A stretch of DNA of 29,429 nucleotides, from contig JBDRNJ010000062.1 in the NCBI GenBank assembly GCA_043811375.1, positions 1 to 29,429 of the forward strand, written 5' to 3'. The stretch's first letter is position 1, and every line of letters starts with the position of its first letter. This document shows, in pieces, positions 1 through 22,995 of this stretch. Position numbers and translations under genes: made by a program. Below the pieces are notes generated by a model. It saw nothing but the letters and a program-made list of their open reading frames with translations. It was not told where the DNA came from and searched no databases. The DNA is from a bacterium (GTDB taxonomy: Bacteria; Zixibacteria; MSB-5A5; GN15; FEB-12).

Positions 1-172
1 TGAAAGGATAGTATACACTCAGGTAATTGAACTGAACCAAAGACTCAGGGAAAACCACATAACTCAATTTACACAATAATCCTTGCACTACCTTGTATAG
101 CAGTGATGTGGAAATTCGCAATGAAATCGATAAATGCCGCATCAGCAGCGACATCAAGGCGCGTCGAGGGAC

Positions 173-508
173 TCAGCCTTTGAAAAGCAGAACCAGTGAA
201 CAAGCGGTAACCGTCACCGGCAATAACATGAAAAACGAATAAGGCATAAAAAAGCTGCCCAGAAAGGCCAGCGCTACCGCCGGCAATACCAGGTATCTGG
301 CCGTGGCAAAACCGATTTTGGCCAACCGTGATACCACCACCAGGATCAACGCGGCTGCCACGATATAGGCGGCAATCAGGCCGTTAGATCCAAAGTGCTC
401 AATGATCACGGCCTTGACTGACCCGAAAACACCTGAGTATTGGTCCATTTGCTCAGAGACCTGCTCGGTGATTCGACCGGCTTGATTTAGCAGCGTCAGT
501 TTAGACAT
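173..508 (-). CDS. small hypothetical membrane protein (~111 aa, about 3 hydrophobic segments)
   Basis: ORF track 173..523; likelier ATG at 508 overlaps the end of the upstream ORF (GATGTCTAA). Hydrophobic stretches GLIAAYIVAAALILVVV, YLVLPAVALAFLGSFFM, FFMLLPVTVTACSLVLLF. Confidence 0.75.
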   Translation of the reverse strand: MSKLTLLNQAGRITEQVSEQMDQYSGVFGSVKAVIIEHFGSNGLIAAYIVAAALILVVVSRLAKIGFATARYLVLPAVALAFLGSFFMPYSFFMLLPVTVTACSLVLLFKG

Positions 509-728
509 CTTCCATCTCATCAACCGGTTCGATGGTCAGGGATGATTCTCCCACCCGATCAAGACCGACCATCCGCCCGGTGAGAAAGTTCCTGGAGGTG
601 ATCCACTGGTGAGAGACCTCAAGAATCTCAGACTGATCCATCTCGGATTCCCAGAGTAAAACAACCTGATCAATACTTCTTTCGTCGACGACCAGGTCAT
701 CCATTGTGAGAACAAACTTGACTTTCAT
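501..728 (-). CDS. small acidic hypothetical protein (75 aa)
   Basis: ATG at 728 (MKVKFVLTMDD...) lies downstream of the sigma54 site at 787-802, which makes the track start at 803 unlikely. Overlaps the start of the next gene. Confidence 0.7.
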   Translation of the reverse strand: MKVKFVLTMDDLVVDERSIDQVVLLWESEMDQSEILEVSHQWITSRNFLTGRMVGLDRVGESSLTIEPVDEMEDV

Positions 729-786
729 ACCCAAACCATCCCGTGGTGTCTCAAGTTGCAATTCACTATTGTTCTGTCCACGGAGA

Positions 787-802
787 TGCAAGCATAATGC
801 CA
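787..802 (-). promoter_or_regulatory. sigma54 (-24/-12) promoter for the 728..501 / 508..173 operon
   Basis: Minus strand reads TGGCATTATGCTTGCA: GG-N10-GC, close to consensus TGGCAC-N5-TTGCA. Confidence 0.8.
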
Positions 803-939
803 CTGTGGGTGGGGTTCTTGTGTTTGTCGGGTAACTTGTTGTATGATTGGAGCTTACAGGACAATGCCGGGGGTGGAACAGCCTGCCTCAGACATTGACC
901 CGGCGAGATAGTATTGGGTTACCCCCCCATTATGTGGGG

Positions 940-978
940 TAAGATAATTACCGGCGACAAGTTATGCCGCCGGTAATT
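940..978 (-). terminator. probable intrinsic terminator of the 1410->940 transcript
   Basis: 11-bp perfect inverted repeat AATTACCGGCG (946-956) / CGCCGGTAATT (968-978), extendable with a G-U pair on the minus strand. The U-tail is weak (AUUAUCUU). Confidence 0.5.
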
Positions 979-979
979 C

Positions 980-1260
980 GTACTACGGATTTCGATTGTT
1001 CGTTTTGAAACCCCCGGGTAGATCCCCGGTTCCGGATGGCCTTTGACACCGGATGATAGATGAGCGTACTCGTGGTGTCCGTATCAGGAGGGCTCCTGAC
1101 GGGGTCTTTCCGTGACCCTCAGGTCGTACCGGAGCGGACAAGACCGCCCAGGTGCTTCAAGTCGTGTGCGTTGGTCTTACGCTTTCCTCGTTCAAGTGAC
1201 CCAATCAGTCGGATGCCCGATTCCTGACGGGTCGTCTCATTACATAGGCAAACCCTCCTT
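980..1260 (-). ncRNA. candidate structured non-coding RNA (family not recognised)
   Basis: Series of stems: 1045-50/1074-79, 1084-89/1094-99, 1102-06/1114-18, 1134-37/1144-47, 1168-71/1179-82, 1198-1202/1229-33. No credible long ORF. Flanked by a sigma70-like promoter and a terminator-like hairpin. Confidence 0.45.
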
Positions 1261-1262
1261 CG

Positions 1263-1412
1263 TCAAAATACGCCCCCTGTCCAACGGGAAGGGGTCGTCT
1301 GCATGGAACTCTGCTGTCCAGCATAAAAAGCCATCAAAAAGCCAATGATGAGGAAGAGTACAAAAAAAATACTAAATGCTCTCGAGGAGAGACCGGTGGG
1401 GGCCAGCCTCAT
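1263..1412 (-). CDS. possible 49-aa single-pass membrane peptide (not in ORF track)
   Basis: Hand translation MRLAPTGLSSRAFSIFFVLFLIIGFLMAFYAGQQSSMQTTPSRWTGGVF*. ATG lies 4 nt after the -10 box with no SD. Confidence 0.3.
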   Translation of the reverse strand: MRLAPTGLSSRAFSIFFVLFLIIGFLMAFYAGQQSSMQTTPSRWTGGVF

Positions 1413-1416
1413 TATG

Positions 1417-1446
1417 AATATACCCTGCAGAGGTTGTTTTTGTCAA
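1417..1446 (-). promoter_or_regulatory. sigma70-type promoter, divergent from fumC
   Basis: Minus strand TTGACA (1446-1441) - 18 nt - TATATT (1422-1417). Confidence 0.6.
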
Positions 1447-1593
1447 GTGAAAAAATGCTCACGCGCTCACTTTTTCGGAAGATACATCCGGCTGCACTTG
1501 CACCCGGCGGCATAAATAGTATATTGGCGGGCCTGTCAATGCCAAGGCAGTTATGTCGACTATAAATGATTACGTCACCCTATGGGAGGTGCT

Positions 1594-2985
1594 ATGAGTT
1601 ATCGCACTGAAACCGACTCTATGGGACAAATCCAGGTCCCGACTGACAGATACTACGGTGCCCAGACGGCCCGTTCTCTGAAAAACTTTCGTATCGGCAG
1701 CGAACGGATGCCGCGCGAATTGATCCGCGCTATGGGAATTCTCAAGAAGGCGGCGGCTATGGTCAATATGGATCTGGGCACACTCCCCCCGGAAAAAAGC
1801 GAATTGATCGTCAAGGCGGCCGACGAAGTGATCGAAGGCAAGCTGGACGATCATTTCCCGCTGGTGGTCTGGCAAACCGGCTCCGGCACCCAGACCAACA
1901 TGAACACCAACGAGGTCATCTCCAACCGGGCCATCGAAATCTCCGGCGGTGAACTGGGATCAAAAAAGCCAATCCATCCCAATGATGACGTCAACAAGGC
2001 CCAGTCATCCAACGACACTTTCCCCACTGCTATGCACATCGCCGCCGTGGAGGAAATCCATCGGCGGTTGATCCCGATGATTACCCTGCTCAGGGATACG
2101 CTACATGAGAAATCAAAAGCGTTTGACCAGGTTATCAAGATCGGGCGCACTCACCTGATGGATGCCGTGCCGCTCACTCTCGGTCAGGAATTCTCAGGCT
2201 ATGTAGCTGCCCTGACGCTCGGTCTGGAGCGCATTGACGACACCCTCAAACGCCTCTATCCCCTGGCGCTGGGCGGCACAGCCGTCGGCACCGGCCTGAA
2301 CACCCACCCGGAGTTTGCCGACAAGGCAGCCGCCACTATTGCTAAATTGACTGGTCAGCCGTTCGTTTCCGCTCCCAACAAGTTCGAGGCGCTGGCAACT
2401 CATGATGCCGTCGTCGAAGCGTCGGGCGTCATGAAGACCCTGGCCTGTTCTCTGATGAAAATCGCCAACGACATCCGCTGGCTGGCTTCCGGCCCGCGCT
2501 GTGGTCTGGGCGAACTGAGTCTTCCTGCCAACGAACCGGGATCATCTATCATGCCCGGCAAAGTCAACCCGACCCAGTCGGAGGCGATGACGATGGTTTG
2601 CACCCAGGTGATCGGCAACGATGTCGCCGTCAACGTGGGCGGCGCCTCGGGCAATTTCGAGCTGAACGTCTTCAAGCCGGTTATGATCTACAACCTGCTG
2701 CAGTCGATTCGTCTACTGGCCGACTCCTGTGAGATGTTTAATGAAAACTGCGCCGTAGGTATCGAACCGAACCGGGCCAATATCGACAAGCACCTGACAA
2801 ATTCCCTGATGCTGGTAACGGCCCTCAACCCGCATATCGGTTATGACAACGCCGCCAAAATCGCCAAAAAGGCCCATACTGAAGGCACTACACTGAAAGA
2901 AGCGGCGGTGGCGCTGGGTATTCTGACCGAGGAGAAGTTCGACGAGATCGTCCGTCCGGAAAAGATGACTGGACCGAAGGCGTAG
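1594..2985 (+). CDS. fumC: class II fumarate hydratase
   Basis: [11 protein letters not shown] signature, [19 protein letters not shown] and [10 protein letters not shown] motifs. SD GGAGGT precedes ATG 1594. Confidence 0.97.
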
Positions 2986-3079
2986 ACAATCTGCGAGGCA
3001 GAGGTCTCATTCAAACCGTGCGTTGAATAGCAGCGAGAACTGCCAACAGTGGTGATGCTCGCAGGAATGGAGGATCAGA

Positions 3080-6454: not shown

Positions 6455-7915
6455 CTATTGAATCCCTACCGGCACAAAAAGGAAGGATGAGATTCTCAAT
6501 TCAACGAACGGCACGGTCTTGTTTATTCCCGCCGAGTGATCGAAGTTGCGAATCCACTCCACGCCACCGTTGATATCAAAAAAGAAGTGACCTTGCCAAA
6601 AGCCCTTCAAGCCGACTGCGGTAGTCATCCTTTTCTCAATGGTACCGGTGGGGAATGATTCCTCGTAGTCGCCACTCGTCGATAACCAGGGAGCTGTCCA
6701 CTCGGAGATGACCTGACCCTCACCCTGTCGATAATATCGCCAGTGAAGTGAGGCAGCCGTAGCGCGTGCCAACCAGTGGGTAATCGTCGCTTCGGTCAGA
6801 TCGTAGTCATTGCCCAACGCACCGCCGATGAGCCGGTCGTTGTATGTGTACCGATTACGCTCTTGCACCTGGTTGAAGGTCCAGTTGGTCACCCGGCTGT
6901 GCTCCAACTGAAAATCAAGATTCGGCACTACGTTGACCCAGTGCAGACCGGTCAGGAAAGCGATTTCATCCGGTTCCTCATCGACCTGGGTTTCGCGATC
7001 AATCTGGAAATCATCGACCAGTAACTGTCCGTATAATCTGATTCGCTGCCTCGGTTGCAGACTGAAATCCAGTCCGAGGAAGGTATTGTCATCGATGCCC
7101 TCGTTTAACTGGGTACCGTGATAGAAAAGGATTGGATTGAGATAGAACAGGTCTATCTGACGACCCGGTCCGCCGAAAACGACAGTTTCAAAAAATCCCA
7201 ATTGCAACCAGGTGGCGGCATTAATATCCAGCCGGTGACCGGCCAGGTAGCGGTTTTCGAATTGTTCGCTGCCGTCGCGGTCGGGATTAAGCCCGTCCAG
7301 CCGTGCCAGTCGATAGGACAGCGTTAGTCTCCCCCAACGGAAAGTATACCCAAAGCCGTCCAGCGGCTTTTCTGCTGACAGCACCAGCGAGTTTCGCGGT
7401 CCCCAAAAAGAGGCGAAACGTCCGGCAGTGACAGCCAACGGTCCCGAGCGGTAGAGTAAAAATGCCTGCCGGACATCCCCGGCCAGACCACGCCACTTCT
7501 TGCCCCGGTAGGTGGGGTCCTGGGCGAGTTGTTCATCGAGTGAAAAATCGGCGTACATATACAACCTTCGCGCCGGCATCCCCACCAGCCCACCGCGAAA
7601 TGATTCCCACCCGCGACCGACTTCAGCCCGGGCGGCACGGAAGTTCTCTCCAAAGAAACCGAACAGGTATACCTGCTGCTGATCGAGAGATTTCAGATCA
7701 GCAAACGGCGACCAGGACAAGTCGATATCTTCCAGTGCGTATGGTCCCAGGTGGAAAACCAGCGGCTCATCCCGTTCGACGGCCGTGCGCTCTGCCCGGT
7801 CATAGACAAACTGATATTCCAAATCATTCGGGGGCAGTACACCGGTGGTGGACCCATCGGCAGCCGCCATTGTCAGTATAGCCAGAAAAAGTGTGGTTAA
7901 TGATCTGCAGTTCAT
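6455..7915 (-). CDS. wzi: capsule assembly Wzi-family outer-membrane protein
   Basis: Signal peptide; motifs AGR..FWGP, RYLAGHRLD, LGFFETVVFGG, YLNP, DN..LGLDF, LYGQLLVDD; SD GGAGA; EPS context. Confidence 0.8.
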   Translation of the reverse strand: MNCRSLTTLFLAILTMAAADGSTTGVLPPNDLEYQFVYDRAERTAVERDEPLVFHLGPYALEDIDLSWSPFADLKSLDQQQVYLFGFFGENFRAARAEVGRGWESFRGGLVGMPARRLYMYADFSLDEQLAQDPTYRGKKWRGLAGDVRQAFLLYRSGPLAVTAGRFASFWGPRNSLVLSAEKPLDGFGYTFRWGRLTLSYRLARLDGLNPDRDGSEQFENRYLAGHRLDINAATWLQLGFFETVVFGGPGRQIDLFYLNPILFYHGTQLNEGIDDNTFLGLDFSLQPRQRIRLYGQLLVDDFQIDRETQVDEEPDEIAFLTGLHWVNVVPNLDFQLEHSRVTNWTFNQVQERNRYTYNDRLIGGALGNDYDLTEATITHWLARATAASLHWRYYRQGEGQVISEWTAPWLSTSGDYEESFPTGTIEKRMTTAVGLKGFWQGHFFFDINGGVEWIRNFDHSAGINKTVPFVELRISSFLFVPVGIQ

Positions 7916-7963
7916 ACCAGTCTCCTATTCCGGATAGAACCATGTTGCCGGTGGCGCCGCCCG

Positions 7964-9583
7964 TCAGGACGCGCCGGTACCTTTTATGACTGCCGGTAGA
8001 GTGCGAGCCAGAATCCTGGCGTCCAGCCACAACGACCAGTTGTCGATGTACTCCAAGTCCAGCTCCATCCACCGCTCAAAATCTATGTTGTTGCGCCCGT
8101 TGATTTGCCACAGGCACGTCACACCCGGCTTGACCGACAATCGTCGACGCTGCCAGGGTTGATACTTCTCCACCTCGGAGGGAATCGGCGGACGCGGTCC
8201 TACCAGTGACATGTCTCCGCGCAGAACATTGAAAAACTGCGGCACCTCATCTATGGAGCACTGGCGAAGGATTCGACCGATCCGGGTAACCCGGGGGTCG
8301 TCCTTGGCCTTGAAAACCGGACCGGACATCATATTAAGGTCTTTCAGCAGGTGCTTTCGCTTGTCGGCTTTGTTGTACATGGTTCGGAATTTATAAAGCA
8401 TGAAACGCTTCCCGTTGACTCCGCACCGTTCCTGTCTGAAGAAGACCGGTCCCCGGCTGTCGAGTTTGATGGCCACCGCCGTCAGCAACATGAGAGGCGC
8501 CGACAGGATAATACCAACCAGCGCACCGATTTTATCGATGATATTCTTGACGATTTCTGCCCTGCGCCCGGACGGTGCCGCATGATATATCAGCGCCGGC
8601 GAGCCGTTAACGCCCGACAGTTGCGGCCTGGTCAGGTGAGCCTGGAAGATATCGGGCATGAAATACAGAGCTACGCCCATCTTCTCAGCGGTTTCAAACA
8701 ACCGACGGGTACGCAATAAATCTTTCACATCTACATCCACCACCACCGCATCAACCTGTTCTTTCAAAACGAAGCGTTCCAGTTCATCCGGGTGTCCCAG
8801 GAGAGGAATGTCCCGATAGCGCCAGAGCCCACTTCGGCGGTAATCCAGAAACCCCTTGATCGAGAGACCGGAATCGGGTGAGTCCGCTACGGAGTCAGCA
8901 ACAGCACGGGCTTTCTTGCCGGTACCAATAATGATGATTTCCTTGAAACCTCCACGGTTGCTGTTGGGAGCCCCCCCGCGCGTAAGAACCCGCAAACCCA
9001 GGCGAGTAGCTGAAAGAACGACCAGTTGCAGCACAATATCCGTCAACACAAAGACGACGGCGGTTGCTGCGGTCAAATGCCATCCAGCCAGTGAGGTAGC
9101 AGCCACCAGCACCAGGCAGACTTTCAACTCAAAGCCCACCAGGTACCGGGCTCGCTTTATTGCCGATGGCAGTGAAAGTGTTGATCGGCGACCCCGGGTG
9201 AAATAAAGCAATACCCTCACCGCTACCAGCATTCCGACTAGTCCCAGCAGGGAATATCCGGTTTCACCGGCGACTACCAGGCTTACCCAGAGGGCGACAA
9301 TCGACAGACCGGTAGCTCCGACACCACCCGGCAGAACAGTCAGTACTTGCCGCCACTTATCACTGAGTAACCGCCGGTCGGGACGGAAAGATCGCTGATG
9401 TCGGGTTGTCGATGTCGGCCAGCGCCGATCTCGTTGGGGTTCTGAACCACGTTTCGAACGGAACCGGTCTCGTCCACCGGGTGGAAGACCGCCTCCTGGT
9501 GTTGATGCCGGTACTGTCTCAATAGTGGAGAACTGATGGGAAGTTGTCTCGTTTGTTGCCTGCGCAGCATCTGTCCTAGCCAT
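7964..9583 (-). CDS. priming sugar transferase (WcaJ/WbaP-type polyprenyl-phosphate glycosylphosphotransferase)
   Basis: C-terminal KFRTM, DPRVTRIG, SIDEVPQFFNVLRGDMSLVGPRP, VKPGVTCLWQ, DLEYIDNWSLWLD; N-terminal TMs and Rossmann-like IIIIGTG. ATG 9583 follows SD AAGGTGGA. Confidence 0.93.
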   Translation of the reverse strand: MARTDAAQATNETTSHQFSTIETVPASTPGGGLPPGGRDRFRSKRGSEPQRDRRWPTSTTRHQRSFRPDRRLLSDKWRQVLTVLPGGVGATGLSIVALWVSLVVAGETGYSLLGLVGMLVAVRVLLYFTRGRRSTLSLPSAIKRARYLVGFELKVCLVLVAATSLAGWHLTAATAVVFVLTDIVLQLVVLSATRLGLRVLTRGGAPNSNRGGFKEIIIIGTGKKARAVADSVADSPDSGLSIKGFLDYRRSGLWRYRDIPLLGHPDELERFVLKEQVDAVVVDVDVKDLLRTRRLFETAEKMGVALYFMPDIFQAHLTRPQLSGVNGSPALIYHAAPSGRRAEIVKNIIDKIGALVGIILSAPLMLLTAVAIKLDSRGPVFFRQERCGVNGKRFMLYKFRTMYNKADKRKHLLKDLNMMSGPVFKAKDDPRVTRIGRILRQCSIDEVPQFFNVLRGDMSLVGPRPPIPSEVEKYQPWQRRRLSVKPGVTCLWQINGRNNIDFERWMELDLEYIDNWSLWLDARILARTLPAVIKGTGAS

Positions 9584-9682
9584 GAGCGTCCACCTTCTCG
9601 TTAAGAAGTTGCGGGCTGACAAGACCTGGTCTGTCCATCGGACCAAAAGAGTCCCGACGGAGGTAACAAGGTCGCACCCCTT

Positions 9683-10780
9683 TCACTCTTTCTCGGCCAC
9701 TTGCTTTTGGTTCTTAACCCAGCGCGGCGGCATCGCCACAGACGCTTCCGATATCGGCGCCACCGGAGCGGACTTGTTACCTTTTTCTGATGAAGATACT
9801 TCACCTCTCCGGCGCAGTTTAACCGTACGCCGATCAAGCGTTTTCATCCGGTAGTATTCGGTCGGCATCTTCCTGAACGCCTCCAGCAGCTTGTCATTTG
9901 AGTACGGCGATTGAACCTGGTAGCGCAGATAATTTTCGAGCTGAGGGTAACCATGAAGGTTATCAACCGGTGTTTTGTAGCCGGCCATGAAGTTTCCGAC
10001 CCGTTCGGGATCGGCCACTCGCAGCAGCAGAAAATCGGTAGACGTGATACGGCACTGCACTTTCAGACGATTGAGCTCAGTAGCCAGACGCAGCGACTCA
10101 TCATGAATGACCTGCAGGTGTGATGCCAGAGCCTCCCCATCAATCAGGGTAGCCAACATTGTCTTGCGAACAGTGGCTGAAATCGGCTGATTGAGACAGG
10201 AGTTCTGAACGGTTTCGATGTTCGCAGGACTGGCCAGCAGGAACCCGGCATCGGAAGAAGTTATACCAAAAGATGCCGTAAAAGACCTCAGTACAATTAC
10301 GTTTGTCAGCAGATCTACCAGAGGAAAACCTGATATCCCGTAGTGATCGAAATAATATTCATCGATAAACAGCATCCCCTGAGGCACCGCCCGCGCCAGT
10401 TGTTCCAACTGGGAAAGCGAGATACCTGTGCCGGTTACTCGATTGGGATTGGCCACGTAAATCAGATCCCGGGGGGATCGCACAGTTTCGACAGCACCTT
10501 GCGAATCTGCCGAGAAAGTGGATGGACCCAGTCTCTCGACCAACTCCACATCCGCTTGATTGGCCGCGATCTCAACGTCCGGAGTTACGTGTCCGGTACA
10601 AACAAACCGACAACCGGGTGTATCCCAGGTCCGGATCAGTTCTGTCAGAATGGATGAGAGCTTGACAAACGGCAGGATATTTCTCCTGGTGGTCAAAACC
10701 TTCTGAGCCACCAAGGCCGTCAGTTCGTCAATCGCCATGCCGGTGGGTGTCGTTGATAACGCCATAGTCTTTACCTTCAT
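9683..10780 (-). CDS. HisC-like class I/II aminotransferase-fold protein, probably catalytically degenerate
   Basis: ANPNRVTG (cf. NPNNPTG), IDEYY (cf. DEAY), NVIVLRSFTASFG (cf. LRTFSKAxG; Lys absent), STDFLL (cf. SxANF), NYLRY. Confidence 0.8.
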   Translation of the reverse strand: MKVKTMALSTTPTGMAIDELTALVAQKVLTTRRNILPFVKLSSILTELIRTWDTPGCRFVCTGHVTPDVEIAANQADVELVERLGPSTFSADSQGAVETVRSPRDLIYVANPNRVTGTGISLSQLEQLARAVPQGMLFIDEYYFDHYGISGFPLVDLLTNVIVLRSFTASFGITSSDAGFLLASPANIETVQNSCLNQPISATVRKTMLATLIDGEALASHLQVIHDESLRLATELNRLKVQCRITSTDFLLLRVADPERVGNFMAGYKTPVDNLHGYPQLENYLRYQVQSPYSNDKLLEAFRKMPTEYYRMKTLDRRTVKLRRRGEVSSSEKGNKSAPVAPISEASVAMPPRWVKNQKQVAEKE

Positions 10781-10896
10781 ATTCCGGAAACAGTCAACTC
10801 ACCCCGGATGCGATCAGACGTGCTGAAGACTTTGGCGACATCGCGAGGTCGCTAACCATTCCCTGATTGATCAGTCCGTTTTTTACCAACGATAAA

Positions 10897-10912
10897 AGCA
10901 AAGGCGGTGCCG
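10897..10912 (-). promoter_or_regulatory. sigma54 promoter for the HisC-like / sugar transferase / wzi operon
   Basis: Minus strand CGGCACCGCCTTTGCT = GG-N10-GC; lies between the wza terminator and ATG 10780. Confidence 0.78.
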
Positions 10913-11053
10913 CTTTGTTCAACCGATGCACAGCACTCTGGTAAGACCGTGCCGATCAGAGTGTTACGATAGTACGGCTTTCACCGGGATGCCGGCCAGC
11001 AGGGAACCCTGGCTGAGCTTTTTTCCGTAAGCGACTGAAAAGAATTCCCTCTG

Positions 11054-11094
11054 AAAAAAAATACCGCCGGCGGACTCATGCGCCCACCGACGGT
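11054..11094 (-). terminator. intrinsic terminator after the SLBB/Wza gene
   Basis: Minus strand ACCGUCGGUGGGC-GCAUGA-GUCCGCCGGCGGU followed by A and U8. Confidence 0.85.
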
Positions 11095-11140
11095 TCTGGG
11101 AAGGCAAGAACGGTAAAGAGATAGTTTTCCTGATGCCTGG

Positions 11141-13519
11141 TTACAACTTCGATACAATATAGATTGATGTCAGCACACCCGTAGTAGCGGTCAGGGCAGT
11201 GGTGACGGTTTTCAACCAGTTGCGTTCTTTCTCTATTTTAGTGGGGACAATGATAACATCCCCCAGATATACTTTCTTACCCAGACAACCACGCCCGGAA
11301 ATCACTTCACCACCGGCGCGCATCAGGCGTACTTCTTTCTTATCCGCCTGACGAGTGAAGTTGCCGGCCCATTGGATGTAATGCTTAACCTTTTTGTTGG
11401 ACTTAAACTTGATGGTTCCGTTGGCCCCAACGGCACCCATCACTGAGATTCCCGTCGGCACTGAAGGAACATAAATGTGGTCACCCGGCTTGAGTACCAG
11501 GTCTCCTTCCCGCCCGTCGCTGTCCACGATTTTCTCCAGGTCAATAATCACCCGATTCATAGAGGCTAAGTCGTACCGGGAGATGTTATGTTTGACGATA
11601 TTCCCCAGCGAATCTTCAGTCACCGGCCGTGATCTCTCCAACAGGTCCGGCACTTTCAGTCTTTGAAGGTGGTGCTGAATTGATTGCCGCTCAAAGACAA
11701 TCCCTCGCGGAAAGGCATTGGGAGTAAAACCGCCGGCCCGCAGCAGCAGTTGGTACAAGGTCTCGTCTTTGCCGGCCAGGGTGTATCCCCCGGGATAGTT
11801 GACCTCACCCTCAATTGTCACAGCCTGATGAAGATGCCATTGCGGAATCTGGCGGATATATACGTGATCGTCTTCGCGCAGGATAGTTGGCGGGCTGTTC
11901 GGCGAATCCAGATCGGCGAAGATCATTGTGACATTGCCGATAGAATCAATGCGGGCGATTTCCGCCTCGTGACGCACCGCACCCCGGGTAAACGAACCGG
12001 CCAGAAAAATTATATCCTGAACCGTCATCATGTCATATAGGGGATATGGTCCGGGCGTTTTGATCTCACCTTCAATGTAAACCCGTTTATCTCGCTGTAC
12101 CTCATTAATGGCATATATGTGCAATGAATCCCGGTCCTGCAGGAGGATGTCGGAATCCGGCGGGCCGGACAGAATCTTGTGGAGATTGATCGGTGTTACC
12201 TCCGCCCGACGATCAGGATAATAACGGTAGAGGTCGGCACGCTCGAAATAGACATCATACGGCTGTAGTTGCCCCTGCCGTACGAGATCGGAAACACGGG
12301 TGGAATCGTTGCGTTCATAGTATCCGGGATGTTTAACACAACCGGCAACGGCCACCCTGTTGGTGGTAACGTCAAAGATTGAGAAAACCGTCAATCGATC
12401 ACCGTCAAGCAACAGTATATCATCCGTTTGAGAGCTATCCTCCCGGTTGAGATTGAGATCCCGTACTTCTCTTTCGCCGTCTGCTGTGATTCGTTCCAGC
12501 ATGACCCTGTTCAGATGGGCCTGTGCGGTAGGGTTACCCGCCAGAGACAGCAGCGTCAGCGCGGTTTCGTCACCCTTCAATTCGTAGATGGCAGACCTGT
12601 TGATTTCACCCCTGACAGCCACTCGATCTCCGGCCACCGGCACAAAAACAACATCGCCGGTCTGAAGTCGAGCATCGGTGGAGTTATCCCCCGCTAGCAA
12701 CAGGTTGTACAGATCCACTTCGGCCTGGACTTTTCCTCGGCGCATCAGCTTGATATGCCGCATGGAGCCCCTTTGATTGGGTCCTCCAGCCAGGTAGATG
12801 GCATTAAACAGGGAAGTTAGTGACGAGACACTGTAGGCTCCGGGTTTTTTCACTTCACCGGTGACGTAGATTCTGATAGATCGAATCTTGCCCAGTGAGA
12901 TGGTCAGATCGAACTCCGAATAGGCTTTGGAAAACAGCTTTTTCACTCTTTGTTGAAACTGCTGCAGGGTCAATCCCCAGCCGATGATCTCACCGACCCT
13001 CGGGATGAACACCTTGCCTTCCCGGTCCAGCGTCAGGTTGTATTCCTTCTCAACGCGCCCCCACAGGTAAATGATCAGATTGTCACCGGGACCCAGCATA
13101 TAGTCGGCCGCAGAAGCGATGTCAGCCGGAGGTTCGTAATCCGGGGGAGCATCGAACAGCTCCATCCCGAACGGCCGCAATTGGTCAAAATCCTGTATCT
13201 GATCCGCCGCGACCATCAAGCCGGAGTCATTAGCGGAGATGCTGTCAAGAACCGCATCCCTTCCGGAAAGTGACATCCCCCCCTTCAGACTGTCTCCGGG
13301 TATATGTTGAGACCGATTCTTGTCACTGTCAAAAATCTGAGGGCTCCGGTAGTACTCGGACTCTTTCCTGTCAGCAAGGCTATCGCGATACTTCTTAAGT
13401 AGTTGCTGCTTGTCCAGCTTCTCAAGGCTGGAGAGATCCTGTGCCACTACGGTCCTGAACCAGTTAAGCGACACCAAAACTATCATCAGCAGCAGCAGGA
13501 TGAGTAACTTGGCTTTCAT
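11141..13519 (-). CDS. polysaccharide export protein with multiple SLBB domains (Wza/KpsD-like)
   Basis: PFGMELF, YMLGPGDNL, LDREGKVFIPRVG, repeated V.GEV..PG.Y SLBB motifs, C-terminal amphipathic helix. Start reassigned to ATG 13519 (SD GAAGGAAG, signal-like MKAKLLILLLLMIV), downstream of the sigma54 site. Confidence 0.9.
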   Translation of the reverse strand: MKAKLLILLLLMIVLVSLNWFRTVVAQDLSSLEKLDKQQLLKKYRDSLADRKESEYYRSPQIFDSDKNRSQHIPGDSLKGGMSLSGRDAVLDSISANDSGLMVAADQIQDFDQLRPFGMELFDAPPDYEPPADIASAADYMLGPGDNLIIYLWGRVEKEYNLTLDREGKVFIPRVGEIIGWGLTLQQFQQRVKKLFSKAYSEFDLTISLGKIRSIRIYVTGEVKKPGAYSVSSLTSLFNAIYLAGGPNQRGSMRHIKLMRRGKVQAEVDLYNLLLAGDNSTDARLQTGDVVFVPVAGDRVAVRGEINRSAIYELKGDETALTLLSLAGNPTAQAHLNRVMLERITADGEREVRDLNLNREDSSQTDDILLLDGDRLTVFSIFDVTTNRVAVAGCVKHPGYYERNDSTRVSDLVRQGQLQPYDVYFERADLYRYYPDRRAEVTPINLHKILSGPPDSDILLQDRDSLHIYAINEVQRDKRVYIEGEIKTPGPYPLYDMMTVQDIIFLAGSFTRGAVRHEAEIARIDSIGNVTMIFADLDSPNSPPTILREDDHVYIRQIPQWHLHQAVTIEGEVNYPGGYTLAGKDETLYQLLLRAGGFTPNAFPRGIVFERQSIQHHLQRLKVPDLLERSRPVTEDSLGNIVKHNISRYDLASMNRVIIDLEKIVDSDGREGDLVLKPGDHIYVPSVPTGISVMGAVGANGTIKFKSNKKVKHYIQWAGNFTRQADKKEVRLMRAGGEVISGRGCLGKKVYLGDVIIVPTKIEKERNWLKTVTTALTATTGVLTSIYIVSKL

Positions 13520-13590
13520 TTTCTTCCTTCCCATGGCTTTGCCTTCAGCAGCCCGGCTGTTGATGGCCGGGTCAACCGACATCAGATATA

Positions 13591-13606
13591 AGCAAGGCTG
13601 ATGCCG
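13591..13606 (-). promoter_or_regulatory. sigma54 promoter for the SLBB/Wza gene
   Basis: Minus strand CGGCATCAGCCTTGCT = GG-N10-GC, about 70 nt upstream of ATG 13519. Confidence 0.78.
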
Positions 13607-13991
13607 GATGCGGCTGTTCACGTAAGTGGTTGTGACATTTGGTGATAGTTGGTAGTCGCGGCATTTGCTACCATCTGCAGGCAGTGCTGTGAGTAATGAC
13701 TTCCACATCAAAAGGGAACATTTTTCCGGTAAGGTGGCGCTACCGGCACGGGTATTTGTTCCAACGGCACGCAAGGTTTGGCCTGGTCTGTTTATCGCTT
13801 CCCCCAGGGGATATCAGCCGTGATCCCGGGGCTTGTTGATAAAGTCACTTCGGGCAGCTTATATCGATCTTCGGGCGCTCCGCCTGATGGATATTGACTC
13901 CACGTTTTGAGGTCACTACACGTCTGTGAGGGCAGTATTGGTCGGGTCGCGCTGTCGGTATTTCGTGACCACTTAAAAAGAGGCATAGCGC

Positions 13992-22611: not shown

Positions 22612-22711
22612 AACTGTACCCTCGGTTTAATGGTTTAGTACTACCATTTAGTTCCGTCCTGATTCGATGGGTATGTCTTTACAAAAAGGGCTAAAAGATA
22701 CATCCGTCATC

Positions 22712-22794
22712 TCCGTTTTCCTACGCCGGTATTACCCGGATCAGGTTTGGGGGTATGATCTCAGGCGGCTTTTTATTACGCCACCCCCAACGGA
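22712..22794 (-). ncRNA. TPP (thiamine pyrophosphate) riboswitch aptamer
   Basis: Minus strand UCCGUU-GGGGGUG...GCCUGAGA-UC-AUACCC-CCA-AACCUGAUCCGGGUAAUACCGGCGUAGGAA-AACGGA carries the hallmark motifs, with P1 UCCGUU/AACGGA. Confidence 0.96.
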
Positions 22795-22995
22795 ACTATG
22801 TCTTCAACAGCTATATACTTGATACGAAGAACCGGCGCAAGCAAAATCGTGTCAATGTGGCCGGAGGGCAAGCACTGCGTAGCCGGGTCATCCAACCTGT
22901 TACGGGCTCAACAGCACAAGATAAGAAGGACGTTGCCATCTCCGGTCTGTTTCGCTAAGTTGTGGTGGCGGGTTGCATAACAGCCGTCAACAGAC

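Follow-up and report, generated by a model that had tools for sequence, protein, structure and literature searches.

The described systems closest to the RNA unit studied here each share some of its features. CsrB and RsmZ, and likewise the Campylobacter flaA leader, resemble it in carrying an ANGGA in a hairpin loop and a GGA that overlaps the Shine-Dalgarno (SD), as far as the available parts of the sources go (PMC7652899, PMC4894983). In our case, too, the host encodes CsrA in a flagellar cluster. The unit, however, usually has one hairpin site and no enrichment of GGA, possesses a real AUG-stop and contains further conserved motifs; its host, moreover, appears to have FliW. Yfr1 of cyanobacteria, which according to the accessible part of its description blocks the ribosome binding sites of mRNAs for outer-membrane proteins (PMC2796815), has a short conserved single-stranded CU-rich motif, ACUCCUCACAC, comparable to CCUCAC and CUCAYCUAUCAUCC in our unit. 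The 11-nt Yfr1 motif is not a consensus here, the unit is about 450 nt long and has a dummy start, and no cognate pairing with the leader of a beta-barrel gene was detected. We regard Yfr1 as the closest working analogue for the putative CU-rich seed. STAB-SD elements and 5' ribosome roadblocks, in the excerpts available (PMC8309854, PMC3997798), have like the unit a strong SD far from a protein start, and this design also occurs in leaders of beta-barrel and flagellin genes of the genomes considered here. Unlike them, the unit has an AUG-stop on a protein-less RNA, and its order is one where RNase J was not found (61 genomes). The CreT RNA toxins (10.64898/2026.06.02.729485) and the start-stops of E. 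coli (10.1101/520783), each known to us from part of its text, combine SD, minimal ORF and hairpin, as does the unit. It differs from CreT by the lack of fixed codons, of a CRISPR link in the loci read, by being a core chromosomal single copy and by its long 3' domain, and from the E. coli sites in that these lie within genes. 6S RNA (RF00013, RF01685), finally, is conserved, structured and stand-alone as well, and the host has no detectable 6S; the unit, however, obtains no score with the 6S models, has a branched domain and an SD-AUG, and is more than twice as long as the model.

In the window (the whole stretch of DNA analysed, 29,429 nucleotides), the unit constitutes an RNA gene that stands alone, encodes no protein and has the architecture of an mRNA leader (Table 1). 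Direct observations are how the gene is laid out, that it is conserved, that it does not depend on the downstream gene and that RNA contigs are confined to it. It is a real RNA family, apparently undescribed, whose dummy start is unusual and whose function we infer below. The promoter given in the original prediction, TTGACA-18-TATATT, is present and constitutes the best-scoring site within positions 1-3000 of the window; from its spacing, transcription is predicted to start at about 1411. The 5' part carries CCCCCAC at 1402-1396 and CCUCA at 1353-1349, where homologues have CCUCAC/CCCCAC motifs. As had been claimed, there is no long ORF, the longest ones on the minus strand within the unit being 49 and 52 aa. 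The former is probably incidental: it is private to this genome, comparable ORFs in 3/67 homologues are mutually unrelated, and in RNA contigs of relatives it is interrupted by a 1-nt insertion, either at 1264 or at 1272. Reading the unit as a whole as protein-coding was rejected since reading frames shift among homologues.

Table 1. Positions of the features of the RNA unit and its surroundings in the window.
Feature	Position	Strand	Basis
-35 box TTGACA, sigma70-type	1446-1441	-	promoter scan, 11/12 match
-10 box TATATT	1422-1417	-	18-nt spacer from -35 box
Entire predicted RNA, ~470 nt	940-1411	-	fold, homologue lengths, RNA contigs
5' part, CU-rich, weakly folded	1263-1411	-	homologue fold z median -0.64
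49-aa hydrophobic ORF	1263-1412	-	non-conserved
Strong Shine-Dalgarno AAGGAGGG, also ANGGA (CsrA-type) site	1253-1260	-	A at -2 of GGAG
AUG-UAA start-stop in GCCUAUG context	1240-1249 (AUG 1245-1243; AUG-UAA 1245-1240)	-	sequence
P1 hairpin, immediately 3' of mini-ORF	1198-1233	-	P ~1.0, one pair 0.48
Small hairpin, ACCA-containing loop (subgroup feature)	1168-1182	-	P 0.93-0.97; pattern in 4/30 loci
P3 5' arm (helix closing 3' domain)	1154-1160	-	pairing with GUUUC motif
Hairpin with ACGGA loop, CsrA-type site	1102-1118	-	ANGGA loop enrichment, covariation
Local hairpin, its CCCUCCU alternatively pairing with SD (this genome only)	1084-1099	-	base-pair probabilities
P6 helix GACACC/GGUGUC, 23-nt loop with motif M2 (1066-1051)	1045-1079	-	homologue helix test
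P3 3' arm, GUUUCAA	1005-1011	-	arm pairing across homologues
Motif M3, consensus UCCGYAAUACGA, directly before terminator	978-989	-	homologue match
Terminator hairpin and tail	940-978	-	fold; RNA contigs end at 966-968
Inverted repeat, outside RNA	912-932	.	kept upstream of 75-aa gene where RNA missing
Sigma54-type -24/-12 promoter of downstream operon	787-802	-	GGCA-N6/7-TTGC pattern
75-aa conserved protein gene, usual downstream neighbour	501-728	-	genome search
fumC, divergent neighbour, inconsistently linked	1582-2985	+	annotation; first two homologues

The terminal hairpin anticipated at 946-978 exists; read on the minus strand it has 14 pairs, of which 12 reach a P of at least 0.94. It is absent from the terminator-scanner output for the window; its U tail is weak here and stronger in the homologues. 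The notion that G-U pairs favour the minus strand held for 47/67 homologues, which were sense-favoured, but not for this genome, where the plus strand is more stable by 4.1 kcal from AUG to M3. G-U asymmetry is thus a weak strand signal, and the assignment to the minus strand is based on promoter, SD and terminator tail. Upstream of the promoter, a 12-nt stretch at 1502-1513 is complementary to the 5' arm of the terminator and adjoins a second promoter-like site (1545-1518); it was not seen in the two closest homologues.

A blastn search in 100 genomes returned two true relatives of the unit, and a third match (G028) turned out to be a chance resemblance to the terminator. Since blastn gave just these two, homologues were collected by synteny. 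Ninety regions upstream of the gene for the 75-aa protein were examined and 68 with an SD and ATG 400-580 nt before this gene were retained; one was dropped as its terminator lay beyond the search range, leaving 67 homologues, 54 of family f1 and 13 of f4. The 22 regions left out were ten of f3, three of f2, one truncated, one with an assembly gap, one without ATG, one displaced by an insertion and five without the RNA. SD and ATG are therefore selected for in the set of 67, whereas the choice put no constraint on the length of the ORF, on the flanking bases or on motifs further downstream. The homologues, all from the same order, have a median length of 455 nt (range 329-554) and a mean column identity of about 31% (3' parts of 41 aligned members). 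What they have kept is the promoter, a 5' part rich in CU, a 3' domain that is folded, the 12-nt motif and the terminator, with TTGAC 140-235 nt upstream of the AUG in 66/67. Judged from sequence, the RNA family is conserved across most of one order and its helices are kept by different sequences, which strengthens the case made by the original prediction.

A model built from M3 and the hairpin gave one match in this genome and matches in 123/150 genomes at E<=0.05, some of them false; at E<=0.003 it gave none in 80 genomes (72 of other orders and eight of this one). Unlinked matches with weak E values were, among those displayed (20 fetched), ordinary gene terminators, and two viral matches lay within apparent coding sequence without the other parts of the unit. 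In other orders no RNA was detected upstream of the 75-aa gene in 33 loci, five of them seen in part, and seven matches to the start motif proved unrelated. In f3 (L130, L133, L134, L135, L136, L143), the same locus is occupied by a longer non-coding region that has a TTGACA promoter and resembles the unit in its 5' motifs; its structured 3' part differs and it has no SD-AUG. This may be a sister family of RNAs. In five f3 loci a promoter and a 5' part of CCUCAC/CCCCAC type were recognized, again without SD-AUG; they were least clear in a further one, G084. In f2 (L138, L140-L142) the RNA is longer too, its AUG and terminator lying about 520 nt apart, and M3 is a variant.

The most distinctive conserved part of the unit, absent, like the ANGGA loop, from the original prediction, is its dummy start, SD-AUG-stop. 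The ORF has at most 3 aa in 37/67 homologues (33/57 after dereplication), the other two frames giving 20 and 6, and only 34 of 742 strong SD-ATG sites genome-wide give an ORF of at most 4 aa. Among the 67, mini-ORF lengths reach 53 aa. Outside this defining set, 2-3 codon ORFs were present in 6/6 further f4 loci and in 4/5 f2 loci, the fifth being cut by a contig end; these counts were read off the sequence output. RNA contigs of relatives likewise show a two-codon ORF, by way of a change at 1242. The context GC(C/G)UAUG is found in 35/67 homologues, while the second codon (E18, G9, V8, D7) and the stop (UGA35, UAA21, UAG11) vary. SD, mini-ORF and hairpin, the combination seen in CreT, could make the unit a translation sink, i.e., an abundant minigene RNA that slows translation by occupying ribosomes, initiator tRNA or release factors, like a tame CreT. 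We consider this improbable. CreT, in the part of its description available, requires specific codons (10.64898/2026.06.02.729485), and its fixed rare/proline codon pair has no counterpart where second codon and stop vary; furthermore, the same element precedes an ordinary gene and the 260-nt 3' domain would have no explanation.

This ordinary gene emerged from a search for the pattern SD-GCSUAUG-codon-UGA, which gave 65 matches in 48/160 genomes as compared to 10 for the reversed pattern. Of 29 inspected matches, 24 precede one conserved gene, the product of which has a predicted fold resembling outer-membrane beta-barrels; this resemblance is a lead only. The element, either SD plus two-codon ORF or a bare AAGGAGGU, is situated 75-170 nt upstream, as exemplified by the SD-AUG-codon-stop at G000:C84:43986-44006 (L292; also L262-L345). 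When leaders were picked by the beta-barrel protein, an upstream SD-ATG was found in 25/30 f1 leaders and an ORF of at most 3 aa in 21/30; the corresponding numbers were 6/8 and 3/8 for f3 and 0/3 for f2. In f4 no such mini-ORF was present, and 6/6 listed leaders had a bare AAGGAGGU. The gene is located downstream of what we take, from its translation, to be a mazG-like gene. The two-codon start element occurs a third time (G000:C74:62456-62474, L293) in the leader of a secreted-protein gene, where a CCCUCAC motif follows it. The flagellin leaders (G000:C72:26790-27100; L247-L251) have in common an upstream SD-like site; 5/6 contain a GGAAGUGAC-type motif and several have an ANGGA hairpin before the SD.

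Our preferred reading, held tentatively and at somewhat less than an even chance, is that the unit is a ribosome-protected, CsrA-binding, base-pairing regulatory RNA. As a first step, the strong SD-AUG would recruit ribosomes, which would come to a halt immediately and thereby likely protect the RNA. That the same element occurs upstream of the conserved beta-barrel gene is our reason for seeing in the dummy start a ribosome-loading stabiliser, and by analogy with STAB-SD (PMC8309854, PMC3997798) we take its role to be ribosome loading and RNA protection. Against this protection step, RNase J, the classic target of SD roadblocks, stayed under the cut-off in 61/61 genomes, with weak partial matches in 33. 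RNase E/G is present, and protection would therefore need to act against RNase E/G or another nuclease.

The second step would involve CsrA. Hairpins with ANGGA in the loop were found in 32/67 homologues, as opposed to 6.9 ± 2.5 in shuffles (maximum 13) and 6 on the reverse strand, and ANGGA came out on top of 256 loop cores, the next best scoring 17. In 36 sites chosen by CANGGA, 73.9% of the cells pair versus 61.1%, with 24 double changes versus 8.9. Broken down by family, the hairpin occurs in 28/54 f1 and 0/13 f4 RNAs, and similar ones were seen in single f2 and f3 RNAs. The SD has an A at -2 of GGAG in 58/67 homologues as against 37% of 596 starts genome-wide. CsrA is encoded in 152/160 genomes of the order; since it is also found in 69/72 genomes of other orders where the RNA was not detected, this co-occurrence is uninformative. 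Reading the translations, we take the genes adjoining csrA to be flgK, flgL, a fliW-like gene and flagellin genes. Flagellin leaders of this genome carry similar ANGGA hairpins. The ANGGA sites of the unit fit the CsrA consensus as given in the available parts of PMC7652899 and PMC4894983. CsrA would thus be likely to bind both the hairpin and the SD, competing with the ribosome; through this competition, the level of the RNA would come to depend on free CsrA and, by way of it, on the FliW-flagellin switch.

Could the unit be a CsrA decoy and nothing else, an mRNA-leader mimic soaking up CsrA as does the Campylobacter flaA leader, in FliW-bearing bacteria? A hairpin of high-affinity type together with an SD-overlapping ANGGA corresponds to the glgC/hag design, insofar as the accessible text describes it (PMC7652899, PMC4894983); at least two sites are present in 33/54 f1 RNAs, AUGGA stands at the start in 24/67, and the hairpins in single f2 and f3 RNAs point in the same direction. 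We nevertheless judge this explanation unlikely. Total GGA is not enriched (374 versus 360 ± 13) and hairpin sites usually number one, which also led us to reject the many-GGA-loop design of CsrB/RsmZ, of whose features the unit shows an ANGGA in a hairpin loop (in f1 only among the f1/f4 set) and a host with CsrA. The ANGGA hairpin is missing from f4. CsrA binding alone leaves M2, M3 and CCUCAC unexplained, and since these are the more widely conserved parts, we favour a base-pairing regulator over a pure decoy. A bolder proposal, which we put forward as speculative and rather unlikely, is that the unit represents a novel class of mRNAs lacking a protein product, its translation serving solely to sense how ribosomes and CsrA compete, and acts as the RNA antagonist of CsrA in bacteria that have FliW as well, linking flagellar assembly to the envelope genes that share the two-codon dummy start.

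In the base-pairing reading preferred here, the output would be pairing of the P6 loop, M3 or CCUCAC with mRNAs, without Hfq, which was not found in G000. Of the features of a trans-acting sRNA, the unit shows a promoter and a terminator of its own, the lack of a protein product and a conserved accessible seed-like motif. Conserved, accessible motifs of this kind are M3, CCUCAC and M2, the last in a helix-closed loop. M3 matches at 9/12 positions or more in 55/67 homologues, CCUCAC occurs in the 5' part of 41/67 where 3.7 are expected, and M2 has a mean unpaired probability of 0.66. Seed scans over 2941 starts of the own genome revealed no striking target. Cognate beta-barrel leaders gave pairing that did not surpass the pairing with foreign ones (z -0.67 and -1.23, 23 leaders). 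That no target was found speaks against the preferred reading, as do the absence of the ANGGA hairpin from f4 (0/13) and an f3 5' part without SD-AUG.

The minus strand from 1412 to 940 folds with -174.6 kcal/mol (z -3.56), and 0/100 shuffles were equally stable; the plus strand of the same interval gave z -2.61. Among the homologues, the median z was -1.91 for the region 3' of the AUG, that of P1, with values below -2 in 30/67, and -2.27 for the middle region, as compared to -0.23 for a downstream control. Of the stems listed previously, P1 and the GGGUC/GACCC hairpin (1118-1102) were recovered at P of about 0.9-1.0, except for one P1 pair at 0.48. For the GACACC/GGUGUC helix, P6, folding of the full-length RNA gave a P of only 0.12; a fold of the isolated 3' domain does contain it, and it is kept in homologues, where at least 6 bp surround the M2 loop in 17 of the 27 RNAs having M2, in both f1 and f4 and by differing sequences, versus 27% of swapped flanks. 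The GAG[UACG]CUC hairpin claimed inside it is weak (P 0.06-0.59), and UACG is altered in RNA contigs of relatives. P3 is formed by a GUUUC-type motif before M3 that pairs with AUG+89..103 in 15 of 26 RNAs having the motif and closes a domain of 150-170 nt. Cognate P3 arms show the better pairing on average, compared with swapped ones (-31.3 versus -24.8 for 13 chosen RNAs, -24.9 versus -20.2 for all 67). Cognate arms rank as the best pair in just 2/13 and 7/67 rows, respectively, and this, like the 0 consensus pairs that RNAalifold returned on a plain sequence alignment of 16 domains, weighs against the preferred reading. The terminator covaries (86 cells versus 21.9), but its hairpins had been selected as hairpins. 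Pairing of M3 with the AUG region was dismissed, at 0.37 expected pairs.

The P3-closed domain might itself be the working part of a protein-binding structured RNA, possibly a stand-in for 6S RNA: 6S, including 6S-Flavo, was found neither in the own genome nor in 101 genomes of the order, and the domain is of 6S size and closed by a long bulged stem. This, too, strikes us as improbable, since the unit has no 6S-model score, its domain ends in a multi-hairpin junction without a central bubble and searches of other orders did not recover the RNA. Identity with 6S itself was rejected, the covariance models giving no score and the predicted folds being multibranched instead of a rod with central bubble.

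The original prediction had further suggested a conformational switch driven by direct repeats. The repeats themselves are where they were reported, a 10-nt one at 1094 and 1222, GTGACCC at 1112 and 1196 and TTCAAGT at 1156 and 1191, and the 10-nt sequence has three copies in the window against 0.10 expected. In this genome the SD can also pair with 1092-1086, displacing a local hairpin. Yet the mutually exclusive pairings thought to result found no support: repeat-swapped pairings have P<=0.01, the repeats are unconserved (repeats of at least 10 nt in 3/67 homologues, versus 2.5% of shuffles), and SD sequestration as a conserved switch was dismissed with 0.36 versus 0.34 in shuffled flanks (34/67 RNAs tested). 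We find such a switch barely credible.

The position next to fumC, in divergent orientation, holds for the window and is incidental: the gene is divergent in one of the first two homologues and not shown in the other. The usual downstream neighbour encodes the 75-aa protein, which has no Pfam match and Atlas matches below 0.8; within the order 147/160 genomes contain it, and within the phylum 265/285. GGCA-N6/7-TTGC occurs about 60-90 nt before this gene in 80/90 loci; going by the sigma54 consensus, we take it to be a sigma54-type promoter. The inverted repeat between this promoter and the unit is likely the activator site of the downstream gene. Upstream of this gene, 787-932 of the window contains a conserved TATGGG...CCCATA-type palindrome, and some genomes have a second paralogue of the gene. 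A cis-acting leader or attenuator controlling read-through into the downstream operon would account for the fact that in most f1, f2 and f4 genomes the RNA precedes the same gene, and for its uORF and terminator. It is very improbable, as a separate sigma54-type promoter serves the gene, other orders have the gene but no RNA before it, the complete unit lies away from the gene in G049 and G111, and no conserved antiterminator pairing was seen. A riboswitch or cis attenuator was rejected on the same ground, the position upstream of a regulated gene not being obligate. The unlinked copies in two genomes, together with the neighbour's own promoter, indicate that the unit likely acts in trans.

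As to INDEPENDENCE and expression, RNA-library contigs from four runs of three studies align only within 966-1368. They derive from four of 14 listed runs, found by match to 800-1600, and carry no strand, end or level information. One covers 966-1181 with identical sequence; the others cover 968-1368, 998-1368 and 1074-1313 and are 94-96% alike. Two align up to 1368 and continue for 22 further loose letters. Nine substitutions are listed for the stretch from 1003 to 1215; as we read the folds, each affects a loop, a linker or a terminal G-U pair. A further 18 differences over the covered stretch are outside this listing. The four runs gave no cover on 1-900 or 1401-1600, which does not prove silence.

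No known family was recognized, as the original prediction had it: Rfam 15 gave a best E of 0.1 in 800-1600, far below gathering, and no match in 16 homologous loci. tmRNA, RNase P and SRP RNA were each located on another contig, and ARAGORN found no tmRNA in the window. Together with the order-wide conservation, the kept helices and the confined RNA contigs, this upholds the earlier view of an undescribed structured RNA; the idea of a switch based on repeats was abandoned. Our literature search, outside which most subscription papers fell, found no such RNA, nor any RNA family described for the uncultured host phylum. The phylum is unmentioned in the main text of two 2026 language-model surveys of ncRNA, by a term search of the parts available, and their supplements could hold the RNA. 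What sets the unit apart is that its selected feature is an initiation site without product. Joint control of CsrA by FliW and an sRNA is undetermined for any species according to the accessible part of a review (PMC7652899), and the unit is a candidate for it, with three defined sites. The SD-AUG-codon-stop common to it and the beta-barrel leader is a second, simple candidate for an RNA-stabilising cis element where RNase J was not found. Elsewhere in the window, Rfam identified a TPP riboswitch at 22701-22798 (minus strand, 70 bits), and 6455-13774 (minus strand) harbours capsule/exopolysaccharide genes encoding a Wzi-like protein, a sugar transferase, an aminotransferase and a polysaccharide export protein.
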